Assembly (NCBI GenBank): GCA_010909165.1
Contig: VJWM01000068.1
Location: 248,001 to 312,000, forward strand
Length of the DNA stretch: 64,000 nt
From: Anthoceros angustus
Lineage: Eukaryota > Plantae > Anthocerotophyta
Direction: 5' to 3'
The position numbers and the translations under genes were made by a program. This document shows, piece after piece, positions 5,201-31,841 of this stretch (its first letter is position 1; each line of letters opens with the position of its first letter). The notes beneath the pieces are model-generated. The model was not told where the DNA came from. It was given only the letters and a program-made list of their open reading frames with translations, and searched no databases.

Positions 5201-8200
5201 TATGTTAGAGATGCTCTTGAGAGGGCTTAGTGAAGATCGGTGTATCAACAGATGATAATCTGACGATGTTACGGTGAAGTCTACAAGTTTAAACATGTTT
5301 TCCACGGAGAAGGGCTCGGACTTGTAGATTGTAGTAGCTATGTGACTAGACAAATCACTCATTTGGTGAGGCTTTCCATGTTTACTTCACTACATAAGCG
5401 ACACTCAACGCTTTTGTCTGGGCGATGACTCCGGCCTTGCTATTCTGGAGTTGGTTCGGATATCTACACCGGAGGATGGTTCCTCCTTGTGCTAAATAGT
5501 GTGCTCCACGTCCCAGATGGCTAAGAATTTGATTTCCGCCGCCAACCGCTAGATGGAGCTTTTCTGGAGTTTGGACGTGAGGATTGTTTCTATCGCTCCT
5601 CGCCAAGGCAAGTTGTCGCCGAGGGCAGCCCCGCATGATCTCTACATCTTCACTGGCACCCCTGTACACTACACTTGCTGCAGTGGTAGCATCTTCTAAG
5701 GTTGTCTCACCACCGGGCTCCCTCCATCCGGAATGCCCTACTTTGGCACTCGACTTGGGCACCTCAATCTCAAGCTCCTTGCCATGACTCGGGACTTGTA
5801 TCGAGATAAGTTGCCCTCCTTGGCCAAGACACCACCTCTTTGTGAAGCGTGTGTGCTGCAAGTGGAGCTCTCCCTACTCTGGTCTTCCCGCTAGGGCTTC
5901 TCCCTTTGGAGTTAGTTCACGTAGACTTGTGTGGACCTCTCCTGTTACTTCTTTAGGAGCACGCCATTTTATAGCGATAGTGGATGATTATTCCGCTACT
6001 CTTTTGCGTTTTCGTCTCAAGAGTGACCTTTGTCGTGTTCTCACCTTTTGTTTCATGGCGAGTTGCACACCGGATGCAAGCTACGGCATCGATCCGGCAA
6101 TGCGGAGAACTCAACAACCATCGAGTTCAAAGACTGAGGAGCGTGGGATCTTGAGACAATTCCACGTTCCCTACACCGTAATGGCGTTCGAAAGGCCAAT
6201 GGCGATCTCATGGCCATGGCGCGAGCTATGTTAGCCCGCCTCGCTTGCCTAAGTCTTTTTGTGAGGTCTCTGACGCATACATCAAACAGTTCTTGACCAA
6301 GTCGTTGTTGGTGTACTCCTTTCAGTCTTGGCATGGGTACAAGCCGTTGATCACCCATTTGCGCGCCTTTGGCTCTCCGCCTATGTCCCTCTCCCTCCGT
6401 GATAAGCTTTCTTCAGCACGGAAGCCGGTGTTTGTGGGTTATGGTGAGGATCGCGTATGTTGATTGACGTGGCTACTCGGACTCGCTTATGCTCGACTGT
6501 CACTTTCGACGAGGCTAGCATTCTCTCCTCCGGGTCCGCTTTTGGATGAGGATGATGATGTAGCTTCTATCCCCAATAGTCCCGCTCTCGACGACATTCT
6601 GCTCACTTTGATTTAAGCCCTTCGCCTTTTCCGCTGGTGCTGTTCGCCTCCATGGCTCCTTTACCTCAAGCGCCCGGTTCTTCCGGTTCCCGCCGAGAGG
6701 GGAATATGATCGGCCCATGGATGATGCACAAGGACACCTGGATTTGGGGACATACATGCTGGAGTGGCTCCAGACGTTCCTTTACCGCCTCCATCACCCC
6801 CCGAGACCTGAAGTCGTTGTTCCTGAACGTAGGTACCCTACGCGTCAGAGACTACCAAGACACCTCTGGAATGAGAAGCCATTTGACTTGGAGTTCAATC
6901 AAGTTATACTGATCTTGATCTAGCCGCCTATTCTCTTGCTACGAGTTCTGTTGTTTCAGAGGGAGATCCTCTCACACTTCAAGAAGCATATGCTAGACCT
7001 GAGTCTAACAAGTGGAAACTGGCTGTTGACGATGAGTATAACTCTTTAGTCAAGAATAACACTTGGGCGTAGTGGATCTACCCCGTGAAGGACTACATCA
7101 AGTGCAAGTGGGTACTCAAAACCAAGTTTCAAGAGGTTGAGCCCCGACACGTTATAAAGCGAGGCTAGTGGCCAAGGGCTATAGTCGAAAGAGGAGTCGA
7201 CTATCAAGGCGATCAAGTCTACTCACTGTCGTCAAAGCGATGATAAGGATGCTCCTTGCTTTATGTCTTGAACTTAACTTGGACATCTATCACCGGACGC
7301 CAGCCTTTCCTCTATGGTCACTTGGAAGAAGAGATCTACATGGATCAACCCGAGGATTATGAGGATAAGAGATTCTCAAGGTGTGTAAACTCCTTCGTTC
7401 TATTTATGGGCTCAAACAAAGTCCTCGATGTGGTACAAGAGAATTGACTCTTATCTTAAGAAGATTGGCTTCGCAAAAGCGAAGCAGATATCAACAAAGC
7501 AAAAAGGACAGCTCACTTGTTTTGATAGCGTTATCGTGGATGACTTAGTTATCCCGGTAACAATGTGGAGTTGGTTAACGATCAAGGCCGATCTCGCAAG
7601 GAGTTTGAAATGAAAGATCCGGTCAAGTTAAATACATTCTTGGAATGCACGACACAAAGACAGTCCACTTTGGAGCAATCTACCTTCATCAAGGTCGATG
7701 TAGCCGGATGCTCAAGAGGTTCAACTTGGAGAATGCACGACTACCACTCCAGTCTTTGTTGGTGTTAAGCTCTCCTCATCTTCTTGTCCACATCGGAGAA
7801 AAGAGAAATGGAGAGTGTACCTATCGTATGGCGGTTGGCACTCTCATGTTTCTAGCAACCGGACAAGACCAGACATATCTAATCATAATGCAGCTTGCCC
7901 AATTCTCCGAGAACCTGTGAAGGGATCACCGGGTAGCACTTAAAGAATTATGCGGTACCTCAAGGGTACTTCTAACTATGGTCTCGCTACAAGCCTAGTG
8001 GCAAAAGGAGTCTACAATTGACTTGCTATGTCGATGCAGTTGGGCTTCTCTGAGACACGAGAAAGAGTCTATCGGCTTATTGCTTCCTCGGCTCCATCGT
8101 AAATTGGTCTTGTAGGAAACAAGCCTCAATATCTTTATCTTCCACGAGTCGGAGTACAAAGCTCTCATGGCCACTAAGGAGGCAGTGGGAAAGGAAGTTA

Positions 8201-8503
8201 TGCTAAGACTTGGGTATGCAACAAGTGACCTACGCTTATTAATCGTGATAATATGTCGCCCATCGCCCGGTTTCTAACCTCGTGTTTCACGCCGCACTAA
8301 GCACATTGAGATTCAACATCATTATGTTAGAGATGCTCGAGAGGGCTTAGTGAAGATACGATGTATCAACAGATGATAATACCGATGTTACAAGTCTCTA
8401 CTAAGTTTAAACACTGCTTCCACAGAGAAGGGCTTGGACTTGTAGATTGTAGTAGCTATGTGACGCTAGACAAATCACTCATTTGGTGAGGCTTTCCATG
8501 TTT
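2237..8503 (+). repeat. Direct tandem duplication (~3.14-kb unit x2) of the Copia protease-to-RNase H region
   Basis: 2237-5383 matches 5377-8503. The junction falls on CATGTTT, present at 2237, 5377 and 8497. Confidence 0.9.
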
Positions 8504-9930: not shown

Positions 9931-10744
9931 AGTACTTCATTTTATTCTTTGTTTAATTTACAAGCTTCCAATTTTATAACGCCCCCTGGCTTGGTGCCCT
10001 TTTGTAAGTTGTCCCCATTCGCCCCAGGGCAGATAGGATTTCCCATCTCGTTCTTTTCATATAGTCTCCACATTCGTCTTTTATAACTGGCAATCCAAGC
10101 ATTGTACATGAACATAGAATAAGGACAAATACTTCCCCGAGGGTAGGTCTTTCACTCAGCTGCCTATTATATGCGTTGAATAACCCTCATAAATTTATCG
10201 AACGGATAAGTGTTACGATATTCATAATACAAAATTATTTTAATTGTTTAAATAATAAAAACATGAGAAAAATTAGAACCGCAATTCTCGATGCGGTGTG
10301 ATGAACGTCAAGCGCGTAATGTGATGCCGTCCAAATTGCGACACCGTTCGGAAACGGACGTTTCACAGCAACCGACGCCGACCAGGCTTTGAATCCTGCC
10401 TCCGTTCACCACCCGGGATTTTGGTAGGGAGTAGAATGCCCTCGGCTTCGTTGTTGACTCTCAAAGCATGGAATCGCAGGCAGCTGGCAGGCGAGTGCCG
10501 CCGTCCAAGGAAGATAAGCGCACCGAGCGATGGGTGCAGGATTGCGAGAAGCCTGCCTTCCGGATAGTGCCTGACGACTCCAAACCAACTGTCAGAGACC
10601 CTGTACGTACCCTTCCTTCCGTCTTCTGTTCTGTTGTCCTTTTACCCTCACAGTAACCTTGCTCCTACGAAGTTCTCTGAGCTGGAGAATTTTTTTTCCA
10701 AAGCTGTCTACTGCAGATCGCATTGAGACCGAACAGATTCTTTG

Positions 10745-11616
10745 CCTAGAGGCGTCCTCGAGGCAGCCAGAGGCATACAATATCTCGACAATCTCCGCAT
10801 AGCTGCATGTGACGAATCCCCTCAACAGCAATGGTTCTTCGATTCCGAGAGCACGATTCGCGGGCTGAAAACTTCGGATGGAGAGAACCTGTTCATGGTG
10901 CAAGAGCTCCAGCCCGTGGCTCAGAACCTCTCCTATACAATATCGGCAGCTCAGACGGCTTCGATGCTTCTGCTGACTTCCTGTCCTCTTAGTTCACTCT
11001 TCTTCCTGTGCCTAACTACATGTCTTTCCTGTCGTTGAGGGATCCGGAAGCTTCCGGTCCGAACTTGGTTCAAAATGGTGGGTTTGAGAAAAGCACACTT
11101 CTCCCGGCGAACCCAGACTTTTATGACGGGGAGATCTTTCCTCTGTGTGAATGGGCCATTCTACACGCTCCGAAGCTGGTTCCAAGAGAAAGCCGGGTAC
11201 CAGCAGATGGAAATTTCAGCCTCCTCATGAGCAAGAGTGCCTCCATCAACCAGACCATTCCTGCTATACAAGGCTCGGAGTATCTTCTCACATTCTGTGT
11301 CTGGTTACATCGGCCATGATGCTGATGCACTTCCAGCCCTGCACCAATGAATCGACTAATCCAGCGTATGTCACTGCAAATGCACAAACATTCGGGTCAG
11401 TAAAACATTCCAAGCATCTGAGACAGAAATGGACGACCGAAAAGCTGCCATTCATAGCCGTCGGCAACTCTACAATGATTGTTTTCGAGTCTCATGCAGG
11501 AATGACAACTGTGGACCACTCATAGATGCTGTCACAGTTTCCCTCAAACCAGCATTACCATCTTGGTTTACCAGGACGAGAATCCTCGCACGATGTATAG
11601 CAGGGCTAGCTACATT
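10745..11616 (+). pseudogene. Partial RLK ectodomain copy 1 (part of lectin-like region + DUF642-like), cut within the TM
   Basis: Contains ACDESPQQQWFF, PNLVQNGGFE and NCGPLIDAVTV. Truncated on both sides by array junctions. Confidence 0.75.
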
Positions 11617-13329
11617 TTTGCTTATGCCCTTAGTATCTCCTTACCCTCGTATGTTTCTTGGGGTGCTCAGTTTTTTCATTCCTTCGGTTTATTTATGGAG
11701 TTGCCTTGGCTCTTGTTTTTGGGCGCCATTGTAAGATCCGTTCTTTTATAAAGCTATCTGATTAAGCGATAAACAAAAGTACTTCATTTTATTCTTTGTT
11801 TAATTTACAAGCTTCCAATTTTATAACGCCCGGCTTGGTGCCCTTTGTAAGTTGTCCCCATTCGCCCAGATAGGATTTCCCATCTCGTTCTTTTCATATA
11901 GTCTCCACATTCGTCTTTTATAAGCGGCAATCCAAGCATTGTACATGAACATAGAATAAGGACAAATACTTCCCCGAGGGTAGGTCTTTCACTCAGCTGC
12001 CTATTATATGCGTTGAATAACCCTCATAAATTTATCGAACGGATAAGTGTTACGATATTCATAATACAAAATTATTTTAATTGTTTAAATAATAAAAACA
12101 TGAGAAAAATTAGAACCGCAATTCTCGATGCGGTGTGATGAACGTCAAGCGCGTAATGTGATGCCGTCCAAATTGCGACACCGTTCGGAAACGGACGTTT
12201 CACAGCAACCGACGCCGACCCGGGCTTTTGAATCCTGCCTCCGTTCACCACCCGGGATTTTGGTAGGGAGTAGAATGCCCTCGGCTTCGTTGTTGACTCT
12301 CAAAGCATGGAATCGCAGGCAGCTGGCAGGCGAGTGCCGCCGTCCAAGGAAGATAAGCGCACCGAGCGATGGGTGCAGGATTGCGAGAAGCCTGCCTTCC
12401 GGATAGTGCCTGACGACTCCAAACCAACTGTCAGAGACCCTGTACGTACCCTTCCTTCCGTCTTCTGTTCTGTTGTCCTTTTACCCTCACAGTAACCTTG
12501 CTCCTACGAAGTTCTCTGAGCTGGAGAATTTTTTTTCCAAAGCTGTCTACTGCAGATCGCATTGAGACCGAACAGATTCTTTTGCGACCTCCTCCAACAA
12601 AACCTCCTACAGAGTGGATGCGATGACCACCTGCAGAGTGGATGCAATGCTTTGTTGGAGGCAAGGATGTGCTCACTTTGACATGTTTCTGGCCAGGAGA
12701 ACATTGTAATGGATAGCTTTATAACGGCTACAGCATTAGCCAAGATTCGGAGAAGCTGACTGACGATTATGCCCTCCTCAACTCTTGTATTATTCAGACT
12801 GCAAATTTCCTCCTCCACTGGTGTAATTACAGTGCAAATTTCTAAAAACCCCATTTCTGTACACATGGGTTGCGAGTCCAGAAAAAGGGAGGACAGATTT
12901 TCATATCCTCAACAGCTACGTTCATGGAAAGGGACTGCAACAGATGAGCAACTGTGGTGGTGGTGCGTATGAGCATAGCACTGTCCTCGAGCTCACGATC
13001 TAAGCTGGTTCCATCGACAGTTCCATCGCTACCAAGCTAGCAAAGTGCATATTGTCGTTCAACAATCGAGGCTTCCAGCAACCTTTAGGGTCTGCCATGG
13101 TAATCGATAGAAGCGAGCCGCCCTGACATATGGTAGTTGGTCCCTCCACTTTACAAGGGCAGTGACGCTCCGTTTCAATCCCAGGGTCTCCACTTTTCAA
13201 TCTACTTCAACTGATTCTCTAGTGTACTACCACATACGAGAACTGCACGTAAGGTTGGCAAGCGCATCACGTCGATGTCAGTGGCGTGCGGACTTTTCTA
13301 GCCTAGTCAGTTATCAGCTTGACTACAAA

Positions 13330-13404
13330 CGCATGACGTTCACCCGATTTTGGCAAGCCCCGACCAGACCATGCTCTGAGGGGCTTCGTCTGAGGCAGGC
13401 TCTA
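13330..13404 (+). repeat. 75-bp dispersed hairpin-containing element (also 16103-16176 and 17747-17820; inverted at 32014-32088 and 32858-32932)
   Basis: CGCATGACGTTCACCCGATTTTGGCAAGCCCCGACCAGACCATGCTCTGAGGGGCTTCGTCTGAGGCAGGCTCTA is 74/75 identical to the reverse complement of 32014-32088, in unrelated flanks. Confidence 0.9.
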
Positions 13405-13590
13405 TGACAGGAGCAGAAGGCAGGCCGCGTGAGCCCTTTTGAGACTTTGAGGAGAAAGGGAACTTGCGCCCGTCTCCTGCACTTCGCCAGCCATGCACAC
13501 AAGTTGGTTGTCTGCGCACTGGGTGCAGCAAATTTTTGTTCTGGTGTGCCTCTTCATTCGACGGCAGTAGTATAAGCTGGTTCGTGGCAG

Positions 13591-14840
13591 GAGCTAACAA
13601 AACTGCACTTGAGGTTCCTACTTGCTCCTTTTGTATCAATGCTCTGGGTGCCAATGTGCATCCCAACTTCACACAGCTCAACGTCTCCATATACAGGTGC
13701 CTCAAGTTTGATGAAAACGAGCTATGGGGATATGTCAACACAACTCTGCGGCTGCAAGACAGGACCGGCCAGATTCCGTGCCTAGAGGCGTCCTCGAGGC
13801 AGCCAGAGGCATACAATATCTCGACAATCTCCGCATAGCTGCATGTGACGAATCCCTCAACAGCAATGGTTCTTCGATTCCGAGAGCACGATTCGCAGCG
13901 GGCTGAAAACTTCGGATGGAGAGAACCTGTTCATGGTGCAAGAGCTCCAGCCCGTGGCTCAGAACCTCTCTATACAATATCGGCAGCTCAGACGGCTTCG
14001 ATGCTTCTGCTGACTTCCTGTCCTCTTAGTTCACTCTTCTTCCTGTGCCTAACTACATGTCTTTCCTGTCGTTGAGGGATCCGGAAGCTTCCAGTCGAAC
14101 TTGGTTCAAAATGGTGGGTTTGAGAAAAGCACACTTCTCCCGGCGAACCCAGACTTTTATGACGGGAGATCTTTCCTCTGTGTGAATGGGCCATTCTACA
14201 CGCTCCGAAGCTGGTTCCAAGAGAAAGCCGGGTACCAGCAGATGGAAATTTCAGCCTCCTCATGAGCAAGAGTGCCTCCATCAACCAGACCATTCCTGCT
14301 ATACAAGGCTCGGAGTATCTTCTCACATTCTGTGTCTGGTTACATCGGCCATGATGCTGATACCGAGCACTTCCAGCCCTGCACCAATGAATCGACTAAT
14401 CCAGCGTATGTCACTGCAAATGCACAAACATTCGGGTCAGTAAAACATTCCAAGCATCTGGAGACAGGAAATGGACGACCGAAAAGCTGCCATTCATAGC
14501 CGTCGGCAACTCTACAATGATTGTTTTCGGAGTCTCATACGGGAATGACAACTGTGGACCACTCATAGATGCTGTCACAGTTTCCCTCAAACCAGCATTA
14601 CCATCTTGGTTTACCAGGACGAGAATCCTCGCACGATGTATAGCAGGGCTAGCTACATTGCTACTGCTGATGGCAGTCCCTGCTCTTGTTCTCAAGGGCA
14701 AAAGCTACTACACAACCTACGCACTTGCCAAACGATATGAGCTCGACCAAGAGCGACGTGTACAGCTACGCCGTGGTGGTTCTGGAGATCATCACCGGGC
14801 AGCAAGCCATCATCAACAGCGACCTGCTGGCCCGAGCGTG
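13591..14840 (+). pseudogene. RLK copy 2: ectodomain + TM, most of kinase deleted
   Basis: Matches copy 4 up to 14751, then jumps 672 bp at ACCAAG into kinase subdomain IX (SDVYSYAVVVLE). Confidence 0.8.
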
Positions 14841-16362
14841 AGCTCGCCTTCATCAGGCATTCTCGAAGGACGCTGAGGATTTCTGAGCAACGTGTCATCT
14901 TGTTGAAGGCACAGACGCGCAAATGAAAGCTTTACGAGCACATTATTCTCTGTTTGTATGTATGTAGGTACTGTGCATATGCAGGCAGTAACGCAAGAAT
15001 AGCTGCCTTTGTGAAAGCGCGGTCCGCCAAGTACGGTACAAGAGCGTTGGCCGCGGGCGTTTTGCCTTCGGTTCTGTTACGATGATGAGTCCGTTTAAAA
15101 TCAAGAGCGATTCTTGGGCAAGATCGGCGCTTCCTGGAAGCCTAATATTCTCCAGGCTGCGCCGGTTGTGAAGAATTTCGGCGCGCAATTGTTGTGGTTT
15201 CGTGTTCCGGGATTAGGCTTTATGGCCAGTGGTAAGGAGCATGGGTGGAAGATCACGCGTTTGGAGCCGCAGCTCCAGGTTAGATCCTTTCCGTTGTCTT
15301 GATGCCTGGTTGCGTGAGTTCTCGGCAGGAGGCTGCGGATGGGGTTTCAGGAGGTTCAATTGCGTGGCAACTGCGTGGCTAAGGTTTTGTTGTGCGTGCA
15401 GGTCTGACGTGATGTCAAGGATCAGGAAGCTGGCGCGGTTTCGGCGTAGGATTCAATGGCATCATCGTCTGTCGGATCGCAGGATGGTCGGTTGAGATCT
15501 GCCAGGTTTTGGCCTGCAATCCTGAGTTCCTTAGCAGATCGGAGGTGGTGAATCTGCTGTGTTGTGTTCCATGGCGTCTCCTGTGGAGGCCATGACAGCT
15601 GTTGTCTCATCTCTGCAGTGGGGCTTTCTTCACGATGACTGACTAGGTAAGCGTATCGGTGACCTATTTTTTCCTGGCATGCTTGATAGAATGTAGCTGT
15701 TGTGAAGTTCCAACAGATGAGCAACTGTGGTGGTGGTGCGTATGAGCATAGCACTGTCCTCGAGCTCACGATCTAAGCTGGTTCCATCGACAGTTCCATC
15801 GCTACCAAGCTAGCAAAGTGCATATTGTCGTTCAACAATCGAGGCTTCCAGCAACCTTTAGGGTCTGCCATGGTAATCGATAGAAGCGAGCCGCCCTGAC
15901 ATATGGTAGTTGGTCCCTCCACTTTACAAGGGCAGTGACGCTCCGTTTCAATCCCAGGGTCTCCACTTTTCAATCTACTTCAACTGATTCTCTAGTGTAC
16001 TACCACATACGAGAACTGCACGTAAGGTTGGCAAGCGCATCACGTCGATGTCAGTGGCGTGCGGACTTTTCTAGCCTAGTCAGTTATCAGCTTGACTACA
16101 AACGCATGACGTTCACCCGATTTTGGCAAGCCCGACCAGACCATGCTCTGAGGGGCTTCGTCTGAGGCAGGCTCTATGACAGGAGCAGAAGGCAGGCCGC
16201 GTGAGCCCTTTTGAGACTTTGAGGAGAAAGGGAACTTGCGCCCGTCTCCTGCACTTCGCCAGCCATGCACACAAGTTGGTTGTCTGCGCACTGGGTGCAG
16301 CAAATTTTTGTTCTGGTGTGCCTCTTCATTCGACGGCAGTAGTATAAGCTGGTTCGTGGCAG

Positions 16363-17185
16363 GAGCTAACAAAACTGCACTTGAGGTTCCTACTTGCTCC
16401 TTTTGTATCAATGCTCTGGGTGCCAATGTGCATCCCAACTTCACACAGCTCAACGTCTCCATATACAGGTGCCTCAAGTTTGATGAAAACGAGCTATGGG
16501 GATATGTCAACACAACTCTGCGGCTGCAAGACAGGACCGGCCAGATTCCGTGCCTAGAGGCGTCCTCGAGGCAGCCAGAGGCATACAATATCTCGACAAT
16601 CTCCGCATAGCTGCATGTGACGAATCCCTCAACAGCAATGGTTCTTCGATTCCGAGAGCACGATTCGCAGCGGGCTGAAAACTTCGGATGGAGAGAACCT
16701 GTTCATGGTGCAAGAGCTCCAGCCCGTGGCTCAGAACCTCTCCTATACAATATCGGCAGCTCAGACGGCTTCGATGCTTCTGCTGACTTCCTGTCCTCTT
16801 AGTTCACTCTTCTTCCTGTGCCTAACTACATGTCTTTCCTGTCGTTGAGGATCCGGAAGCTTCCGGTCGAACTTGGTTCAAAATGGTGGGTTTGAGAAAA
16901 GCACACTTCTCCCAGCGAACCCAGACTTTTATGACGGGAGATCTTTCCTCTGTGTGAATGGGCCATTCTACACGCTCCGAAGCTGGTTCCAAGAGAAAGC
17001 CGGGTACCAGCAGATGGAAATTTCAGCCTCCTCATGAGCAAGAGTGCCTCCATCAACCAGACCATTCCTGCTATACAAGGCTCAGGTATCTTCTCACATT
17101 CTGTGTCTGGTTACATCGGCCATGATGCTGATACCGAGCACTTCCAGCCCTGCACCAATGAATCGACTAATCCAGCGTATGTCAC
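16363..17185 (+). pseudogene. RLK copy 3: ectodomain fragment only
   Basis: Matches copy 4 up to GTATGTCAC (17177-17185), then jumps to downstream flank sequence. Confidence 0.75.
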
Positions 17186-18006
17186 ATCTGTTGCTGCAGT
17201 TTTTCATGGCGGGATTTCATGTCCTTCGAACACAAATGACAGACCTCGCAATGGCTACCTCGATTGAGTTGCTTCGAGGGCTTTCATGGCCAGAAGAATT
17301 TCCTCGTCAGCCATAACTCTGGCCTTATGGGGATACAGTGTACATACATTCCAGGCAGACAAAACTCTCACGAGTTTCACTACTTTTCTGTGAGAGCTGT
17401 GTCGCCGTTATCCCTGTCATGGGTTACGGTTGTTACGGTTGAACAAAACTTCAATGACTGCTTACTGAATAGTATATCTTTGCATCTACGGAAACTTTGA
17501 CATGAAATCTGCCATGGTAATCGATAGAAGCGAGCCGCCCTGACATATGGTAGTTGGTCCCTCCACTTTACAAGGGCAGTGACGCTCCGTTTCAATCCCA
17601 GGGTCTCCACTTTTCAATCTACTTCAACTGATTCTCTAGTGTACTACCACATACGAGAACTGCACGTAAGGTTGGCAAGCGCATCACGTCGATGTCAGTG
17701 GCGTGCGGACTTTTCTAGCCTAGTCAGTTATCAGCTTGACTACAAACGCATGACGTTCACCCGATTTTGGCAAGCCCGACCAGACCATGCTCTGAGGGGC
17801 TTCGTCTGAGGCAGGCTCTATGACAGGAGCAGAAGGCAGGCCGCGTGAGCCCTTTTGAGACTTTGAGGAGAAAGGGAACTTGCGCCCGTCTCCTGCACTT
17901 CGCCAGCCATGCACACAAGTTGGTTGTCTGCGCACTGGGTGCAGCAAATTTTTGTTCTGGTGTGCCTCTTCATTCGACGGCAGTAGTATAAGCTGGTTCG
18001 TGGCAG

Positions 18007-19929
18007 GAGCTAACAAAACTGCACTTGAGGTTCCTACTTGCTCCTTTTGTATCAATGCTCTGGGTGCCAATGTGCATCCCAACTTCACACAGCTCAACGT
18101 CTCCATATACAGGTGCCTCAAGTTTGATGAAAACGAGCTATGGGGATATGTCAACACAACTCTGCGGCTGCAAGACAGGACCGGCCAGATTCCGTGCCTA
18201 GAGGCGTCCTCGAGGCAGCCAGAGGCATACAATATCTCGACAATCTCCGCATAGCTGCATGTGACGAATCCCTCAACAGCAATGGTTCTTCGATTCCGAG
18301 AGCACGATTCGCAGCGGGCTGAAAACTTCGGATGGAGAGAACCTGTTCATGGTGCAAGAGCTCCAGCCCGTGGCTCAGAACCTCTCCTATACAATATCGG
18401 CAGCTCAGACGGCTTCGATGCTTCTGCTGACTTCCTGTCCTCTTAGTTCACTCTTCTTCCTGTGCCTAACTACATGTCTTTCCTGTCGTTGAGGATCCGG
18501 AAGCTTCCGGTCGAACTTGGTTCAAAATGGTGGGTTTGAGAAAAGCACACTTCTCCCAGCGAACCCAGACTTTTATGACGGGAGATCTTTCCTCTGTGTG
18601 AATGGGCCATTCTACACGCTCCGAAGCTGGTTCCAAGAGAAAGCCGGGTACCAGCAGATGGAAATTTCAGCCTCCTCATGAGCAAGAGTGCCTCCATCAA
18701 CCAGACCATTCCTGCTATACAAGGCTCGGAGTATCTTCTCACATTCTGTGTCTGGTTACATCGGCCATGATGCTGATACCGAGCACTTCCAGCCCTGCAC
18801 CAATGAATCGACTAATCCAGCGTATGTCACTGCAAATGCACAAACATTCGGGTCAGTAAAACATTCCAAGCATCTGGAGACAGGAAATGGACGACCGAAA
18901 AGCTGCCATTCATAGCCGTCGGCAACTCTACAATGATTGTTTTCGGAGTCTCATACGGGAATGACAACTGTGGACCACTCATAGATGCTGTCACAGTTTC
19001 CCTCAAACCAGCATTACCATCTTGGTTTACCAGGACGAGAATCCTCGCACGATGTATAGCAGGGCTAGCTACATTGCTACTGCTGATGGCAGTCCCTGCT
19101 CTTGTTCTCAAGGGCAAAAGCTACTACACAACCTACGCACTTGCCAAACGATATGAGCTCGACCAAGGAAAGATGTACACCTGGAGGGAGATCAAGAGGA
19201 GCACCAAGAATTTCACCACAGTGATAGGGGGAGGGGGCTTCGGCATGGTCTACAAAGCAGAATTCGCAGATGGAACAGAGGGAGCAGCCAAGGTGGAGAA
19301 ACGACAGAAGAGGCGAACGAGTCAGTTTTCCAGAGAAGTGGCTGTCCTGCAGCAACTTCATCACCGGAACCTTGTGAACCTACTTGGCGTGTAGTTGAAA
19401 AAGGGTAGGATACTCGGCCCTCACCCTTGCAATCTCCATTCACCACCGCAGCTCTAATCACGAGGCTTCACCTGCAGGAATGCACATCCTGGTGTTCCAA
19501 TACATACCGAATGGCAGACTTCATCCTAGCGACAGTCCAAGTTCCGAAGCCAGAAACAAGCCCATCCTGCCATGGAGCTCCAGAATGAAGATATGCTACC
19601 ACGTGGCCTGCGCTCTGGAGTACCTGCACCACGACATAACCCCTCCCATCGTGCACAGGGATGTGCAATCTGCCAACATCCTCCTCACAGCCACAGACTC
19701 CGCCAAGCTAGCAGACTTCGGCCTCTCCAAAGCGGCTCCAGCAAATGCCAGCGCCTTCCAGTCCATCCAGACCGACGTCAAGGGCTCCTTAGGTTACCTG
19801 GACCCCAAGTACGTCCGCTCCGGCATCTTCTCCACCAAGAGCGACGTGTACAGCTACGCCGTGGTGGTTCTGGAGATCATCACCGGGCAGCAAGCCATCA
19901 TCAACAGCGACCTGCTGGCCCGAGCGTGA
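18007..19929 (+). pseudogene. Receptor-like kinase: R-type (ricin B) lectin-like + DUF642-like ectodomain, TM, RD Ser/Thr kinase; most complete copy, disrupted
   Basis: Exon starts after a ...GGCAG acceptor at 18006. Contains C..W/QxW lectin-like repeats, NLVQNGGFE and CGPLIDAV, TM CIAGLATLLLLMAVPALVL, then YTWREIKRSTKNFTTVIGGGGFGMVY, HHRNLVNLLG, an intron at 19405-19477, HRDVQSANILL, DFGLS, GSLGYLDPKY and KSDVYSY. Defects: TAG at 19392-19394 where Cys is usual, ectodomain frameshifts, stop before subdomains X-XI. 5' exon not identified. Confidence 0.8.
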
Positions 19930-21424
19930 GCTCGCCTTCATCAGGCATTCTCGAAGGACGCTGAGGATTTCTGAGCAACGTGTCATCTTGTTGAAGGCAC
20001 AGACGCGCAAATGAAAGCTTTTACGAGCACATTATTCTCTGTTTGTATGTATGTAGGTACTGTGCATATGCAGGCAGTAACGCAAGAATAGCTGCCTTTG
20101 TGAAAGCGCGGTCCGCCAAGTACGGTACAAGAGCGTTGGCCGCGGGCGTTTTGCCTTCGGTTCTGTTACGATGATGAGTCCGTTTAAAATCAAGAGCGAT
20201 TCTTGGGCAAGATCGGCGCTTCCTGGAAGCCTAATATTCTCCAGGCTGCGCCGGTTGTGAAGAATTTCGGCGCGCAATTGTTGTGGTTTCGTGTTCCGGG
20301 ATTAGGCTTTATGGCCAGTGGTAAGGAGCATGGGTGGAAGATCACGCTGTGTTTGGAGCCGCAGCTCCGTTTCCAGGTTAGATCCTTTCCCGTTGTCTTG
20401 ATGCCTGGTTGCGTGAGTTCTCGGCAGGAGGCTGCGGATGGGGTTTCGGGAGGTTCAATTGGTGGCAACTGCGTGGCTAAGGTTTTGTTGTGCGTGCAGG
20501 TCTGACGTGTGATGTCAAGGATCGGGAAGCTGGCGCGGTTTCGGCATGGGATTCAATGGCATCATCGTCTGTCGGATCGCAGGATGGTCGGTTGAGATCT
20601 GCCAGGTTTTGGCCTGCAATCCTGAGTTCCTTAGCAGATCGGAGGTGGTGAATCTGCTGTGTTGTGTTCCATGGCGTCTCCTGTGGAGGGCCATGACAGC
20701 TGTTGTCTCATCTCTGCAGTGGGGCTTTCTTCACGATGACTGACTAGGTAAGCGTATCGGTGACCTATTTTTTCCTGGCAAGCATGCTTGGATAGAATGT
20801 AGGCCGTTGTGAAGTTCCAACAGATGACTGGCTCTCAAGTGTGTGCTACGTTGGAATGTGCTTGAGGAATGTTTTTGATGTATGTCACATCTGTTGCTGC
20901 AGTTTTTCATGGCGGGATTTCATGTCCTTCGAACACAAATGACAGACCTCGCAATGGCTACCTCGATTGAGTTGCTTCGAGGGCTTTCATGGCCAGAAGA
21001 ATTTCCTCGTCAGCCCATAACTCTGGCCTTATGTGTGGGGATACAGTGTACATACATTCCAAGGCAGACAAAAACTCTCACGAGTTTCACTACTTTTCTG
21101 TGAGAGCTGTGTCGCCGTTATCCCTGTCATGGGTTACGGTTGTTACGGTTGAACAAACTTCAATGACTGCTTACTGAATAGTATATCTTTGCATCTACGG
21201 AAACTTTGACATGAAATCTGCCATGTCTGCGTTTTGTATATATTTACTGCATGCGATTTCCAAAGCTGCATCTCTCAACTTCGAAATCCGGTCCTATGGT
21301 GACTCTCCACCTCTGACACGAGGGTGTCCTATGACCAGCAGACGAGATCTGAGATTCCCTCAACCCTAGGTGAGAATTTCGAGACATCTGAACTGCTGTT
21401 GCAACCCATGCTAGGACAAGGCCC

Positions 21425-21780: not shown

Positions 21781-22913
21781 TCACAAGGGCCGAACTTTTG
21801 AGTCAGTTCTTTCAAAAACTCCTGCATGATTCTAGAGTGATTCTGGATGAGACATCACAATACAGATATCACAACGAGAAGGTCAGCAACGACAGATGCA
21901 GAACATCTTGTTGCAACGCCCTGAGAAGTTATGTTTTCTTTGACGTCTGTGTTGGGACCCAGCAGGCTATTCAGTGAGAAACAGACAGAGCGCGCCCAAG
22001 GTTATGAAACGTTCTTGCCTTGTGGAGAGAGGCCTGAGAAGGACCCAATATGTCGAGCACCTCAGGTAGAGTGCCGCAATATCATTCAACTCAGCCAGTC
22101 GTCTTTTCCACGACAACACCTTCGTCGACGACCTCGACGGAGCATTACTGCATGACAAGCATAAAACCCTTGAGCCCTTCATACACCTCTGCGCCCGCCT
22201 AATCCATGCCAGAACAAATGCATACCTACAGGGCCTCCCATCTTGTCCTCCCTTCGATGACGTTGGGAAGTTTGTTTCGCAAGGCTTCCTTTATTTTGCA
22301 AGGCTCCCCAATCGGTGGGTTCTGCTAGAGGGCTTATTGTCTCAGCTGTTTCCATACCAGGGTTTGGTGAGGAAGGCTGTTCGAAGCTGGTAACCCTGCA
22401 TCTCGTCATAACCCACCCCTCATCCATCAAGCTAAACCTGCCCGCTCCATCTTCGGCTGCTGGAAATAACTGCGTCCTAAAAACCTTCCCTATTCTCTAG
22501 TGAGGACTGCGCGCCGTTATCCCGGTCATGGGCCATGGTTGTTACGGCTGAACAACCTTCCATGACTGCTTTCTGAGTAGAAGTTCTTTGCGTCTGCGGA
22601 AACTTGACATGAAATCTGCCATGTCTGCGTGTGCAGTTATCTCCTGTACGTGAATTACAAAGCGGCATCTGTCACCTTCCCAGGTGGAGAGGCAATATTA
22701 CACGAATTTGTCTTGTTGGAGACACTCTCGTGTCTCCAACGAACCGGCAGATGCGACAATTTCGACATATATACCTGAACTGCGAATTGCAACCCATGCC
22801 AACACAAGGCTCTTGTCCCCTCCCGCAACTGGATGCCCTAGTCGGCTTGCCGATGTGAAGAGCAAGCTCACATGCTGGCCTCAAACAGTTGAACACCGCT
22901 GGAGCTCAGCAAG

Positions 22914-23642
22914 ATGCTTTCCACCCTGGAGGCAAACTTCGAAGTCAAGGTGGAAGCCAGGAGACTATGGCGCTGTCAATTAGATGCTGGGCGAAGCTTG
23001 CCCATCGCTTCAGGCGGCCTGGTGGAGAGTGTGGAGTATGAATCGGGCAATGGGGATGCTGGGTCCATCAAGATTGTCAAGTATGGCGCAGGTGACGCTG
23101 TTGCATACAGTCAGGTCGCCGGGACTCCTGCTTTCGAAGCTTGCTGGTTTGCTGCTGAAAGTCTGAGGTTTGCTCCTGTACATGTGTATGTCCCTGCAGG
23201 GCTTCCCAATGTTACGTTCGCGAGGGAGCTCGTTGAGGTAGTGGACCACGAGAAGCTCATCCTTTCGTACTCGATTATTGGGGGAGAGCTGTTTGATCAA
23301 CTCTACAGCCTGTACAGAGGAACAATCTCCTTTACTCCCTTGCTGGAACCCGAAGGGATTCCTGAGTCACAGGAGGATAAGCCTGCAGAAAAGGCTGCAC
23401 AGCCGAGAACCTTGGTGAAATGGCATGTGGAGTACACGACTAGAAGAGATGCTGGTGGACCAGAATTTGCTAAAGCTGCCACGATCAGGCTCTTCAAAAC
23501 CATTGAGTCCTGGCTTACGGCCAATCCGGATCTCTATACTGAGCGACGGAAGGAAAACTCCATAGATGAGACTGGCCAGACAGATTTGCATGGAACTTGC
23601 CGGGTTCCTGCAGACACTCGAACTGTGCTGAAGACAGCCTGA
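22914..23642 (+). CDS. PR-10 / Bet v1-like (SRPBCC) protein; exons 22914-23091 and 23200-23642 (206 aa)
   Basis: P-loop-like ESGNGDAGSIKIVKY, then SYSIIGG, LVKWHVEY and a C-terminal LFKTIESWLTANPDLY helix. One phase-1 GT-AG intron (23092-23199) near the position typical of PR-10 genes. Confidence 0.88.
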   Translation: MLSTLEANFEVKVEARRLWRCQLDAGRSLPIASGGLVESVEYESGNGDAGSIKIVKYGAGDAVAYSQVAGTPAFEACWFAAESLRFAPVHVYVPAGLPNVTFARELVEVVDHEKLILSYSIIGGELFDQLYSLYRGTISFTPLLEPEGIPESQEDKPAEKAAQPRTLVKWHVEYTTRRDAGGPEFAKAATIRLFKTIESWLTANPDLYTERRKENSIDETGQTDLHGTCRVPADTRTVLKTA

Positions 23643-27441: not shown

Positions 27442-29730
27442 TTAGCCCATGTCATCAGTCATGTCTGCCAGTAACGAGTCCAAACGTGGCACATAGCCTT
27501 CTTCCTCCATATTGGAAAGAAGATGGTTCAGCCTTGAATATATGGCTTCAGTCTCAGGATGCTCCTTGTCCCCAACCAGAAAAGTATGCACCCGTCCGTC
27601 TATGTCTGTCCACCAGCTCTGGCCTGGATGCTTCTTCCACGCCCCGATTCCTGTTCGCCTCTCTTGCATCTCCTCTGCCTGCTCCCACATCTGGGCACCA
27701 ATGTATATATTCGACATCAACACGTATGCAGCAGCATCTTTATTGTCTAACTTCAATGCTTCATTGAAAGCAAGGAGTCCCATCTCCACATTGCTCCACT
27801 TCCGACACGCACCCAGGAGAGTGAGCCACACTGCAGCATCAGGCAGTACAGGCATTGTCCTTACCAAAGTCAATGACTCGTCCAGTCGGCCTGCACGACC
27901 AAGGAGATCCACCATGCATGCATAGTGCTGCACCGTGGGAGTGATGCCATATTCTTTGCTCATAGCATCAAAGTACTCTTGGCCCTCATCCACTAGACCC
28001 GTATGACTGCACACTGTGAGTAGACTAAGGAAGGTGATGCCATCGGGCTGTATGCCACCCTCTCTCATTCTGAAGACTAAGTCAAAGACCTTGTCACTGT
28101 CACCTTGACGGGTGTACCCTGCAATCAGTGCACTCCAGGTGACAACATCTCGTTTTGGTAGCAAATCAAACACATGCTGTGCATCAAACATGCTCCCCGC
28201 CTTCGAATACATATTTATCAAACTGTTGCCTACAGTTGCATCAGCTAGAAACCCTTGATCTTTGATCTGTGAATGAAGCTGCCTTCCCACATCCAACGCT
28301 GCAACATTTGCACATGCCTGCAGGAGGCACACAAATGTCACATAATTGGGTGCGACAATGCCTTCTTCTCGCATAGCACCATATAGATGAAGGGCTTCCT
28401 GACCCATGCCCTGCTGGGAATATCCAGCTATCAGAGCAGTCCAGGTCACCACATTTTTTTCACCAAGTCCATCAAACACATTCCGGGCATCATCTAAGCT
28501 GCCACACTTTGCATACATATTCACCAGGCTGTTGGCCACAAATACATCAGCCTGAAGTCCAAGTTCTCTAATTTGTGCATGAAGCTGCTTCCCCTTCTCC
28601 AAAGCCGAGGTACCCAGACTTGCACATGCCTGCAGGAGGCACACAAATGTGACAGGATCAAGTGCAATCACACCTTCATCTTGCATAACTCTATAGAGAC
28701 GAAGGGCTTCATCCCCCATTCCCTTCTGGGAATAGCCTGCTATCATGGCATTCCATGTCACCACATCCTTGCGAGGAAGCCCGTCAAACACTCTCTCTGC
28801 ATCTTCGACGCTGCCGCACCGTGCATACATGTCCACCAAACAACTACAAACAAACAAATCAGGCTCAATACCACTAGCCAACACATCTGCATGCACCTGC
28901 TGCCCACTTTTCAAGTCTGCTGCCCTTGCACAAGCCTGAAGAGCTGCCACAAATACATGACCATCTGGCTTCGCACTTGACATGCGCATCCGTTGATACA
29001 GCTGTATGGCCTGGTTTACTTGCCTGTGTTTAACGTGAGCAGAGATTATAGCAGACCACATGAAAGCATCTGGTTCGGCAACCACCGCGAAAACATCCAT
29101 CGCATCTTGCAGCCTGGCCTGAGAAGCATACATCCGCAGGACGTGGTTACATAAGAACGTGTCCGACTCATAACCCCCTTTTACGATGAGAGCATGGACA
29201 TGGCGACCCAGAGTCAGATCCTTGTGAAGCACACATTTTTTCAGGACTGCATAGAAGAGAGACTGAGAAGTACAAGCTCCTGTCTGCACCAGAACTCCCA
29301 GTGCCTCAACAGCCTCAGTGAGCTGCCCCTGCTTACACAGTTGGTTAACGGTTTCAGCCGTCACGCCCATATCGTACTCTACAGGCCTGCGAGGATCACG
29401 ATCGCCCTTCTTCACATCCAGGGCAGCCAGTCTCGAAGTCACGACTTCCTGGAACACCCTACGCCGAAAGCTATGGGAACGAGAGCTCTTCCCAGGTTGC
29501 TTGTCATCATTCCAGCAAAGTGGATAGCAAATAGAGCCCTCCCTAGAGCTCCTGCTATCCCAAAGCTTCTCCTTCGTCGGGCCCAGAAAAGATGTTGCCA
29601 CCCGATGCGCCGTCTCCCTGTGTGCCAGATGTGCAAAGCAGCCGAGACCCGCAGAACTGTACGTGATCCCATAGCTCAGCTCCAGTGAGCCAGCTGGGCT
29701 GCTTGGGCAAATCATATTGTCGATCTCCAT
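27442..29730 (-). CDS. PLS-class PPR protein, E1-E2-E+ (truncated DYW), probable organellar RNA-editing specificity factor
   Basis: Intronless ORF from first ATG 29730. About 14 P/L/S motifs ending P2-L2-S2 (HYACMVDLLGRAGRL), E1 (VWLTLLGACR), E2 (AYVLMSNIY), PG box KKHPGQSWW...VHTFLVGDKEHPE. Stops after GYVP without HxE/CxxC. Confidence 0.93.
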   Translation of the reverse strand: MEIDNMICPSSPAGSLELSYGITYSSAGLGCFAHLAHRETAHRVATSFLGPTKEKLWDSRSSREGSICYPLCWNDDKQPGKSSRSHSFRRRVFQEVVTSRLAALDVKKGDRDPRRPVEYDMGVTAETVNQLCKQGQLTEAVEALGVLVQTGACTSQSLFYAVLKKCVLHKDLTLGRHVHALIVKGGYESDTFLCNHVLRMYASQARLQDAMDVFAVVAEPDAFMWSAIISAHVKHRQVNQAIQLYQRMRMSSAKPDGHVFVAALQACARAADLKSGQQVHADVLASGIEPDLFVCSCLVDMYARCGSVEDAERVFDGLPRKDVVTWNAMIAGYSQKGMGDEALRLYRVMQDEGVIALDPVTFVCLLQACASLGTSALEKGKQLHAQIRELGLQADVFVANSLVNMYAKCGSLDDARNVFDGLGEKNVVTWTALIAGYSQQGMGQEALHLYGAMREEGIVAPNYVTFVCLLQACANVAALDVGRQLHSQIKDQGFLADATVGNSLINMYSKAGSMFDAQHVFDLLPKRDVVTWSALIAGYTRQGDSDKVFDLVFRMREGGIQPDGITFLSLLTVCSHTGLVDEGQEYFDAMSKEYGITPTVQHYACMVDLLGRAGRLDESLTLVRTMPVLPDAAVWLTLLGACRKWSNVEMGLLAFNEALKLDNKDAAAYVLMSNIYIGAQMWEQAEEMQERRTGIGAWKKHPGQSWWTDIDGRVHTFLVGDKEHPETEAIYSRLNHLLSNMEEEGYVPRLDSLLADMTDDMG

Positions 29731-31841
29731 TTCCCGGGCAAACCACACCGATGCCACAGGGCTGGCCTGATCCGAGTTTGTGTATAAGCCCGGTGGGTTA
29801 CCAATTCCCGAGGCGTTCGATTAGGATATCGTGGTGGGCACTGATGTACAGTAGGGTCTGAATTTCGAGACGCGAATTATGCGGCGCTTGCACGATGAGC
29901 TACGTTTCGAGGTAATGCTGAGGAGGCGATGGGCAGCAGTTGGGTTTCCAGGCTGCGCAGGGAATCTTGCCCCCTCTCCATGACGCAGAGCAGTGAGGTG
30001 GGCGAGGCACGGAGGATGGTGATCACTGGACGACCGACGCAAGGGATACTCGACTGTTGTGCCGCATGCACATGATCGGTCTTCCGCTTCCGCTTGCAGC
30101 TGGCATCAAGTCGCATGGAAGGTGGGAAGCACAGAACCCTCAGCCTGAAGTTGCGGACGGTATGTTGCAGGGTTGTTGTGCGCGCGGGTTGCAGAAAGCA
30201 TGGATGCGTGTGATGTTCTGAAAGGTTCGGGCATAATTGGAGCGATGTTGCTTGGCGACAGGTGTTGCCGGTGCAGGGAGGCGGTGGAGAGATGTGGCGG
30301 CGGCTTGTGAGGCTTGAAAGACCCACCTGACGGTTGTGGTTGGACCAGTACCATGGGGGATCCATCCGGTGGCTCCTGAGTTGAAATTACGGCAGGTATC
30401 GTGGCAACAAATTGGAACCCATTGTGTAGCTTGGTTTTTCTCACGACCTCCTCTCGCATTCTCCAGCTATTTGGTTGCAGATGCTCATCCAGCAACCTGT
30501 GATGCTGCACAGACACTCTGACACCTGTTCCCACCCACGCTGAAACCACTGCAGATAAGCTGACCCTGGAAGACTGGTTGCGATAAGCGGCGGCTGCAGC
30601 TACTGGAGCCCTTGGGCCATCCTCAAGGTAAAGTTTACTCTCATCCTACCCTGTAACGCGAGGTATCAGGATGGTGTACTTGTTCCTCGGTCATGTGTGT
30701 GCCGTGACGATAGGAAAGACATCTCGAGAAGCAGCACTCGAGGGGTTGGTGTGTCGTGTGTGATGTGGAAGGGTTGGTAACGACAGAGAAGCTGTGTGAG
30801 TTTCTTCAGAGTTCAGTGCATGAACGGAGAGAGTATGCTGCTCCTTGTATGCATTCTTGCAGGCAACTGTGCAGAGAGTGGCAAAGCAGCACAACCTTCT
30901 TCAAGCACACTCCCAGCTTCCTTGCCTCAGGCAGCAGCTGCAGCAGCAACAGCAGAAAGTGCAACAAGCAAGGATGCAGTCCCGATTCCCCAGAGCAATC
31001 AACTGCGAAGCTGGCCCTTACAGAGCGATGGCGCGAGGTACAAGCCGCCATCTCGCCCCCTCGCTGCTCTTTCAGGCTGGAGGGTGAGGTCAGGCCACGG
31101 CACCTCTCTGACCCATCTCCCATGTCAAGTGCAGCCAGCAGGAAAACAAACCCACACTCCAAGCTGCTGCACAGCAGAGAATAGGTGCCACTCCTTCCTC
31201 CCCCCCTGCTCCCTCTCCTTCTGTGCTGGCAACAGTGATGTCTAACTGAACCCTCTTCTGTCCACTGTGTGTCCTCACAGGACAGAAAAAGGGAGGCAAA
31301 CGAACGTAAGCCTCCCCGACCATGGCCATGGCAAGCAGCCTGCCCCTGCCACAAACAGTGCTGACTGAACAAGCTGTCTGGCCGCCTGGAAATGACAAGG
31401 AAAAGAACAGGCTCGTGCGACGTGACGCGACAAGCATTCCTTCCACCCATTCCTCCCTTCCATTCTCCTTCCATTCCGTTTCCATTCCCGACGGCAGGAC
31501 GTGCTCACGTCACGCCGCGCCGATGCCAGCATCAAGCCCGTGGAAAGAGCAAACCCACACGTGCCAGACGCGGCAGCGAAAAACGTGATCGAGGCCCCAA
31601 TCATTTGCGTGGCGCGCCCTCACGTGTATAAAGCGCCCCAGATTCTCACGACAGCAAACGCCCAAAAACCCACAAGCTCCCCATCTCCCATCGGGACCCA
31701 GTCTCCCAGCCTGTGCTTCACGACGCCACCTCGCTCCCCGTCCCGTCCCGTCCCGTCCGGCCCCGCCCCGTTCCGTCCCGCCCCCACGGCCCGTTCCTCT
31801 CGCCATCCCGCCCAAAACGAGATAACGGGCCCCGTTTCTCC

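Follow-up and report, generated by a model that had tools for sequence, protein, structure and literature searches.

The stretch analysed here, 64,000 nucleotides of contig VJWM01000068.1 of the hornwort Anthoceros angustus (called the window below, at its full length), carries at positions 17985 to 19929 of the plus strand a gene in which a lectin-like segment and a DUF642-like segment precede a transmembrane (TM) segment and a protein kinase. What kind of receptor this arrangement represents, and whether the window copy can still make it, is the question raised by the locus. The answer to which we give a probability of about 0.7 is that the gene is a decayed copy from a land-plant family of receptor-like kinases (RLKs), in which a predicted beta-trefoil, a DUF642 domain, a TM segment and an RLK/Pelle kinase are joined in one protein that likely signals on binding glycans. 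The window gene itself is a pseudogene, unable to make a receptor, and matters only as a pointer to the family. Its parts are as follows.

17909–17968, plus strand: putative start and signal-peptide-like segment, seen as the hydrophobic start of an open reading frame (ORF)
17985–18470, plus strand: R-type (ricin-B-like) beta-trefoil domain, from the window sequence, the relatives' profile and the fold of the relative P0147
18511–19004, plus strand: single DUF642 domain (PF04862/TIGR04362-like), a beta-sandwich of carbohydrate-binding module (CBM) type, from Pfam, alignment and the relatives' folds
19041–19109, plus strand: TM segment followed by basic residues, from the sequence and a hydropathy peak at the equivalent site in 6/6 Calypogeia relatives
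19206–19404, plus strand: kinase N-lobe (GxGxxG, AAK, alpha-C Glu), from Pfam and alignment
19405–19477, plus strand: 73-nt phase-1 GT-AG intron, at the site where the relatives' genomic ORFs exit the kinase frame
19478–19929, plus strand: kinase C-lobe (HRDVQ, DFG), truncated after subdomain IX

The motifs quoted in the initial annotation, which was made from the sequence alone, were all found where it had placed them, spread over three frames: NLVQNGGFE at 18514, SINQTI and YLLTF at about 18690–18746 and CGPLIDAV at about 18969, together with the TM segment, the kinase, the TAG at 19392 and HRDVQ. In the trefoil, Cys pairs and E/QxW motifs are present in the alpha and beta repeats, and the gamma repeat is degenerate. 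When raw window fragments were compared with Pfam, the kinase was matched, DUF642 did not reach the gathering cut-off (E 2e-4 to 3e-3), and Ricin_B_lectin was marginal (E 0.15). A profile built from six intact relatives gave E values of 2e-11 and 6e-5 for the lectin part and of 9e-5 for DUF642, and matches of this strength in colinear order indicate that the domain assignment is not due to chance. The frame of the putative start differs from that of the mature ectodomain, so that either a frameshift lies near 17967 or this is not the true start; alignments of two other organisms (B and C) to the gene begin only at about 17965–17969.

Intact relatives were obtained by a search with the kinase C-lobe. 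Among the best 120 of 455 matches, five proteins carried PF00652 and PF04862 and a sixth PF04862, all six from the liverwort Calypogeia fissa, with a kinase identity of 58–60% except in P0032 (50%); in the six relatives taken together, both domain families were matched and a TM peak precedes the kinase (6/6 each). After a representative search (best 150 of 4159 matches), local profiles recovered six more two-domain proteins among 267 collected proteins, namely those of Pteridium, Adiantum nelumboides and Ginkgo (Gb_14986) and three Logan proteins. The Ceratopteris relative is a 5'-truncated protein, and the Logan protein P0268 is another full receptor. With Pfam, the gathering cut-off was passed by DUF642 in 9/9 relatives and by Ricin_B_lectin in 4/9. 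Intact proteins with the lectin-like domain, DUF642, TM segment and kinase were found in a liverwort, Calypogeia fissa (CAM6129573.1 among them), and in a fern, Pteridium, and they unite an ectodomain, one TM segment and an RLK-type kinase in a single protein. The fusion in intact homologs is genuine.

The initial annotation had also proposed to look for a 5' exon, and had named as a refutation that the lectin-like exon is never spliced to the kinase in any homolog. A separate lectin exon was rejected. In the window, a single exon holds the lectin, DUF642, TM segment and kinase N-lobe in colinear order, and in four relatives (P0130, P0203, P0265 and P0140) a genomic ORF carries all of them in one frame and exits the kinase at the intron position of the window gene. 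The fusion is therefore exonic, and the gene can be explained without a further coding exon at its 5' end.

Further searches served as probes of the family and do not bound it: the TM/DUF642-end region gave 0 matches among 460 candidates, and the ectodomain profile gave 4 among 7997 scored while missing known members. When metagenome loci were searched with P0130, 49 stretches matched, of which 0 were confirmed; the alignment contained no sufficiently conserved stretch, and an Atlas feature search with the P0032 ectodomain gave weak leads. The bacterial choice-of-anchor C model TIGR04362 scored 70–98 bits over nearly its whole length in P0147, P0268, P0032 and P0249, as against 51–65 bits for PF04862 in these four receptors; the two are different models, and the comparison is only a lead. 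Two Calypogeia proteins deserve separate mention. The gene model of P0270 consists of lectin and DUF642 only, with neither TM segment nor kinase, and is either a secreted form or a split gene model. P0032 is an intact member whose Gly-loop is degenerate and which has HRDVQ, as well as AFD instead of DFG, and its sequence suggests that it is likely a pseudokinase receptor.

Three types of plant lectin RLK, namely L, G and C, are usually distinguished. These, together with LysM and malectin (CrRLK1L) RLKs, share with the present family a signal peptide, an ectodomain built of a carbohydrate module, one TM segment and an RLK/Pelle kinase. The differences lie in the modules: Pfam matches to the legume, bulb/S-domain, C-type lectin and LysM domains were not found in the sets of 6 and 9 relatives scanned, and neither were matches to the malectin models PF11721 and PF12819. 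The DUF642 wall proteins (BIIDXI, TEEBE and At3g08030) have PF04862 with the NGxFE and CGPxxD motifs in common with the receptors, which differ in possessing one domain rather than two, in its fusion to a trefoil and a kinase, and in occurring outside seed plants as well. The R-type domains of ppGalNAc-transferases and CBM13 share the beta-trefoil, Cys pairs and QxW-like motifs; in the receptors, by contrast, the binding residues are altered, the gamma repeat is without Cys and Trp, and the domain forms part of a kinase ectodomain.

Whether the class had been described before was examined in the literature, and the earlier supposition that it had not been holds for the main text of papers only. 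No paper describing trefoil-DUF642-kinase proteins was found, subscription journals being outside the scope; the class has been tabulated in a supplement and apparently left undescribed in the main text. Table S2 of one survey, covering 11,390 RLKs from 21 genomes, holds 11 rows with Ricin_B_lectin, DUF642 and kinase, filed as 'Lectin-RLK', and this architecture, a domain string identical to that of the window family, accounts for all 11/11 of its 'ricin' rows (PMC12512272). They come from Adiantum capillus-veneris (1), A. nelumboides (1), Alsophila (7) and Isoetes sinensis (2), whereas the four bryophytes, the seven angiosperms, Selaginella and Diphasiastrum of that survey, which sampled no hornwort, contribute no such row. 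The rows are lumped with other lectin RLKs; the available text speaks of DUF642-kinases of ferns and Taxus, and no link to cytoplasmic kinases was found in it (PMC12512272). The same table lists in ferns (Adiantum and Alsophila) a second DUF642 receptor architecture, with two DUF642 domains, a leucine-rich repeat (LRR) and a kinase (PMC12512272). The tables of metaRLK 2.0 count Ricin_B_lectin in 4/15 and DUF642 in 30 RLK domains, and the accessible text is silent on them (PMC13174206). No ricin-B/kinase architecture was found in the portions available of PMC6362431 and PMC5485960; Table S3 of the former has 13 rows of ricin-B architectures, none of them with the domain in a kinase ectodomain. 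Ricin and DUF642 do not occur in PMC10868138. The class is not named in the available parts of two preprints (10.1101/2023.12.21.572927; 10.1101/2023.12.18.572263), the first of which has a table of 1,046 domain combinations that may include it. As far as the accessible sections go, DUF642 is described as restricted to seed plants (PMC6651502; PMC13516882) and is defined as a family with two tandem domains, secreted or anchored by glycosylphosphatidylinositol, and with no kinase (PMC6651502).

The ectodomains of relatives were modelled with AlphaFold2 (AF2), and the predicted architecture is a beta-trefoil followed by a sandwich of CBM4/61/16 type. For the Pteridium protein P0147 (16 sequences, mean predicted local distance difference test (pLDDT) 78.6), residues 1–153 of the model align to beta-trefoil lectins (Z 15.6, root-mean-square deviation 2.5, 125 aligned) and residues 175–346 to CBM4-2 and CBM61 (Z 13.9 and 13.5). 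The Ceratopteris DUF642 domain modelled alone (pLDDT 87.9) was closest to TmCBM61, a galactan binder (Z 14.2), followed by CBM4-2 (14.0) and CBM16 (12.6). The best PDB sequence matches of the ectodomain profile (15 sequences at E up to 1) were the lectin domains of ppGalNAc-transferases, at E 3e-8. Both domain calls are thus borne out by the relatives' profile, the fold models and the PDB matches. As for a known RLK domain, for which malectin had been offered as the example, no malectin structure was found among the 50 VIA matches or the Foldseek matches listed for the DUF642 model; kinship of the second domain with malectin or with an unlisted family may nonetheless exist.

How would such a receptor work? 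RLKs are generally activated by ligand-induced pairing with a co-receptor. Judging from the folds, the CBM-like groove would bind wall-derived or microbial glycans, perhaps with the help of the conserved alpha site of the trefoil, and galactan/pectin-type wall glycans or other cell-surface glycans might be the ligands; pairing with a co-receptor would then let the kinase signal. On the strength of these models and of the analogy with other RLKs, we lean towards a plasma-membrane glycan sensor rather than a receptor for protein ligands; no observation made here points to symbiont glycans, which the initial annotation had named as possible ligands. Several observations weigh against this picture or limit it. 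The canonical R-type Gal/GalNAc site consists of Asp, an aromatic residue and Asn. Among 14 lectin domains, the Cys pairs of the alpha and beta repeats and the beta Trp are kept in 14/14, and the gamma repeat has neither Cys nor Trp; at the alpha site Asp is found in 0/14 (Asn in its place in 11/14), with the aromatic residue in 12/14 and Asn in 11/14, and at the beta site Asp is found in 12/14 and the aromatic residue in 0/14. The triad is incomplete at both sites checked, so galactose binding cannot be assumed, and the dual carbohydrate binding proposed earlier is deduced from the folds. A shared fold shows no function; MAM, ephrin-binding and toxin domains also reach Z 10–11 against the DUF642 model; pLDDT is 58–67 in 4/5 ectodomain models, all of them models of relatives rather than of the window gene; and the Ginkgo model has both domains and a kinase, but no clear TM segment.

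The alternative that survives best accepts the same family and the same pseudogene and holds that the ectodomain binds proteins or peptides, such as pectin methylesterases (PMEs) or secreted peptides, the lectin fold being a scaffold. The incomplete sites speak for it, as do the protein-binding trefoils and sandwiches in the fold lists. According to the available text, the DUF642 proteins BDX and At5g11420 bind a PME (PMC6651502). On the other side, both domains find their best matches, in fold and in sequence, among carbohydrate-binding modules, and the aromatic residue and Asn of the alpha repeat are largely kept; for DUF642 proteins, in vitro binding to cellulose or PME is described in the same text (PMC6651502). 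We regard protein binding as rather improbable and retain the glycan sensor as the working interpretation.

The place of the family among plant kinases was studied by phylogenetic analysis. In a FastTree analysis of 130 kinase domains, all family rows fell into one clade of 18 (0.998), which also includes the angiosperm kinases P0217 of Ulmus and P0267 of Coptis. An IQ-TREE analysis was then based on 34 rows (14 ingroup, 4 near and 16 background chosen from 93) and 276/350 columns, leaving out P0013, P0015, P0166, P0269 and the proteins with an N-lobe only. Support was 100/99 for the family, 97/92 for ferns, Ginkgo and angiosperms, and 99/96 for Ginkgo with the angiosperms; the window gene is sister to the RD group of Calypogeia (96/90). 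The nearest neighbours are the algal LRR-RLK P0215 and then SPARK/At1g49730-like kinases (99/97), which differ in having a SPARK ectodomain (PF19160, found only in P0213 and P0277), and malectin-bearing rows lie apart, in the background. In the ectodomain tree (14 rows), ferns again join Ginkgo (98/97), the Calypogeia group recurs, and the window gene groups with the Logan proteins P0130 and P0265 (100/98).

The STRK1-like kinases, which we take to be RLCK-XIII among the receptor-like cytoplasmic kinases (RLCKs), belong to this same clade in the kinase trees and differ from the receptors in having no ectodomain instead of one with two domains. The link is made through Ulmus P0217, whose nearest Atlas cluster (176 members) is named STRK1. 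In P0217 and P0267 no lectin or DUF642 match was found with Pfam; Coptis P0267 keeps a TM-like segment, and Ulmus P0217 has none. Both share a non-RD HGD motif with the fern members. The nesting of these ectodomain-less angiosperm kinases beside Ginkgo suggests a loss of the ectodomain in flowering plants, where the kinase would live on in the cytoplasmic enzymes of STRK1 type, and this apparent descent from a receptor family is the main new point of the study. STRK1 is described in PMC10441961, and the available part of PMC13317940 only lists RLCK-XIII; no tie between STRK1 and that label was found in the literature consulted.

That the nesting is a tree artefact, or that ectodomains were gained repeatedly on a cytoplasmic kinase lineage, was considered as well and appears unlikely. 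The tree holds only two angiosperm rows and no curated RLCK set, with rice STRK1 itself outside it; STRK1 is an automatic cluster label; and the background is only what two homolog searches retrieved. The deep placement of the window gene also differs between the trees, with the Calypogeia RD clade in the kinase tree and with P0130 and P0265, which lack a full kinase, in the ectodomain tree. Against an artefact stand the support values, which match the species order, the fern-Ginkgo group of the ectodomain tree, and the approximately unbiased (AU) test, which rejects a receptors-only clade without the two angiosperm rows at p=3.8e-5, the tested group having been named after the first tree was seen. 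The descent of STRK1-like kinases from receptors is therefore preferred here.

In the ten relatives carrying the HRD motif, five have HRDVK, one (the intact P0032) HRDVQ and four a non-RD form, and we infer a family with RD, non-RD and pseudokinase-like sub-lineages. The wider proposal, that these proteins are a fourth class of plant lectin RLK ('R-type LecRLK'), derived from the land-plant ancestor, glycan-sensing, and left in flowering plants only as decapitated STRK1-like kinases, is tentative, its chances falling slightly short of even. If it is true, the orphan STRK1-like kinases would be the remnant of a glycan receptor, and the use of DUF642 in receptors would precede the expansion of the seed-plant wall family. 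The link to STRK1 would also suggest where a stress-related clade of cytoplasmic kinases in crops (rice STRK1) came from. The family in any case joins a lectin-like module with DUF642, described as seed-plant-only and non-signalling, and its presence across a liverwort, a lycophyte, ferns and Ginkgo supplies candidates through which the perception of glycans by seed-free plants can be tested.

The state of the window gene was assessed with sequencing data. Of 16 sequencing runs listed, two contain 0.84–0.85 of the window words; contigs of four runs (X1, X2, X3 and X12) were compared with the window, and two were compared again over the gene alone. Self-comparison of the window revealed four near-identical ectodomain segments (10727–11616, 13091–14751, 15864–17185 and 17508–19167; 97.6–99.8% alike), and the initial annotation had spoken of several disrupted copies. 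Besides the gene itself, these are:

10727–11616, plus strand: partial ectodomain copy, 97.6% identical to 18179–19075
13091–15720, plus strand: ectodomain and TM copy, 99.7%, with a 10-bp microhomology jump to the kinase end and 3' flank
15711–17516, plus strand: third ectodomain copy, 99.8%, plus a piece of the 3' flank, with 9–10 bp microhomology junctions

The three extra copies are very probably assembly artefacts, with a single gene behind the four. This is concluded because X1 contigs run unbroken across the positions where true repeats would branch, at even depth (14.4 within the repeated unit, 14.9–16.1 on the flanking contigs), and X1 cover is zero in the bins 14637–17546; four real paralogs were rejected. 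At 17508, moreover, X1 and X2 run on into the 13090 flank, and in organism B one contig joins 13180 to 17965. For the copy at 10727–11616, the judgement rests on X1 contigs that continue without a break across 18179 and 19075. A complex rearrangement truly present in the genome, mediated by microhomology through template switching, could account for the six copy junctions, which share 9–17 bp ends, all direct, and contigs drop rare variants, so that missing junctions are no proof; X1 may also be the source run and hence not independent, and depth is no copy number. In view of the unbroken contigs of X1 and the joins seen in X2 and organism B, a rearrangement is quite unlikely, and one gene is assumed below. 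Elsewhere, 31832–33546 holds a 98% tandem duplication of about 870 bp containing an 80-bp repeat seen at 13325, 16098 and 17742, and it may be another assembly duplication.

The gene was then compared with an X2 contig spanning 17824–20378, which has two substitutions and five one-base insertions relative to the window. All five insertions adjoin runs of the same base (4/5 are also present in the first window copy), so the corresponding apparent frameshifts are homopolymer read errors; correcting them extends the open frame of the lectin part to 211 codons. A frameshift-aware alignment to an intact relative still shows two stops, three frameshifts and a deletion at the C-terminus:

about 18388–18417, plus strand: frameshift in the trefoil domain, from the frameshift-aware alignment
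18444, plus strand: TAG stop in the trefoil domain, persisting in the X2 contig
about 18748 and about 18852–18906, plus strand: frameshifts in DUF642, from the same alignment
19392–19394, plus strand: TAG stop replacing a conserved Cys of the kinase N-lobe, with no substitution there in X1 or X2 contigs

Subdomain V has also lost four residues in frame, and the kinase alignment stops 60 residues short of the kinase end, with subdomains X–XI missing; at 19916–19923 the window lacks about 283 nt that organisms B and C possess. An open frame with kinase subdomains I–XI is lacking, and because the stops, frameshifts and 3' deletion persist after read-error correction the gene is a pseudogene, in agreement with its earlier description as disrupted and short of subdomain XI. 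HRDVQ, which had been counted among the marks of decay, was dropped as such, being present in the intact P0032. The notion that this organism has an intact gene and that every break is a long-read error, which draws on the five homopolymer errors and on window copies that differ mostly by small indels, is largely refuted and most improbable, since X2 corrects those five and keeps both TAGs, the three frameshifts and the deletion, X1 contigs are likewise without substitution at both stops, and organisms B and C have the additional 3' sequence.

The decayed gene is likely transcribed, because X2 depth peaks over it (43, against about 2.5 upstream and 0 inside a downstream intron) and the same contig splices two downstream introns. 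Points to the contrary are that the kinase intron 19405–19477 is retained in the X2 contig, and also in X12, that the RNA nature of X2 is a guess, none of the sequencing runs being recorded as RNA, and that one contig can fuse two transcripts. The region concerned is:

19930–21177, plus strand: 3' region in which two GT-AG introns (about 20376–20500 and 20747–20903) are spliced out, on the same X2 contig as the gene; a 3' untranslated region (UTR) or a neighbouring transcript

Within it, 20186–21177 is covered in X2 by a spliced transcript that has the two GT-AG introns and lacks a long ORF. The transcript is also present, at depth 251, in X12, which is from another organism; it is a conserved non-coding transcript or a UTR. 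Upstream, the start of a short ORF lies in 12308–12910, where an intron may be located at about 12445–12556. The X2 contig there has a depth of 42.8, close to the 43.1 of the receptor contig, so that the two may form one transcript, with this contig as its 5' part.

Other features of the window were noted in passing. For 23 other ORFs no Pfam match was found. A compact land-plant genome of about 50% GC with a gene for a PLS-E+ PPR protein would fit a hornwort or a comparable seed-free plant. A tandem duplication of about 3.1 kb at 2237–8503 (86.8% identity, many gaps), with an ORF for a retroviral-type SH3 domain (2858–3808), is probably a decayed long terminal repeat retrotransposon or another noisy duplication. 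A Bet v 1-family ORF lies at 22893–23642, a PLS-class PPR protein with E/E+ motifs is encoded on the minus strand at 27442–29820, and a HAT1-like acetyltransferase fragment is located at 55166–56065.
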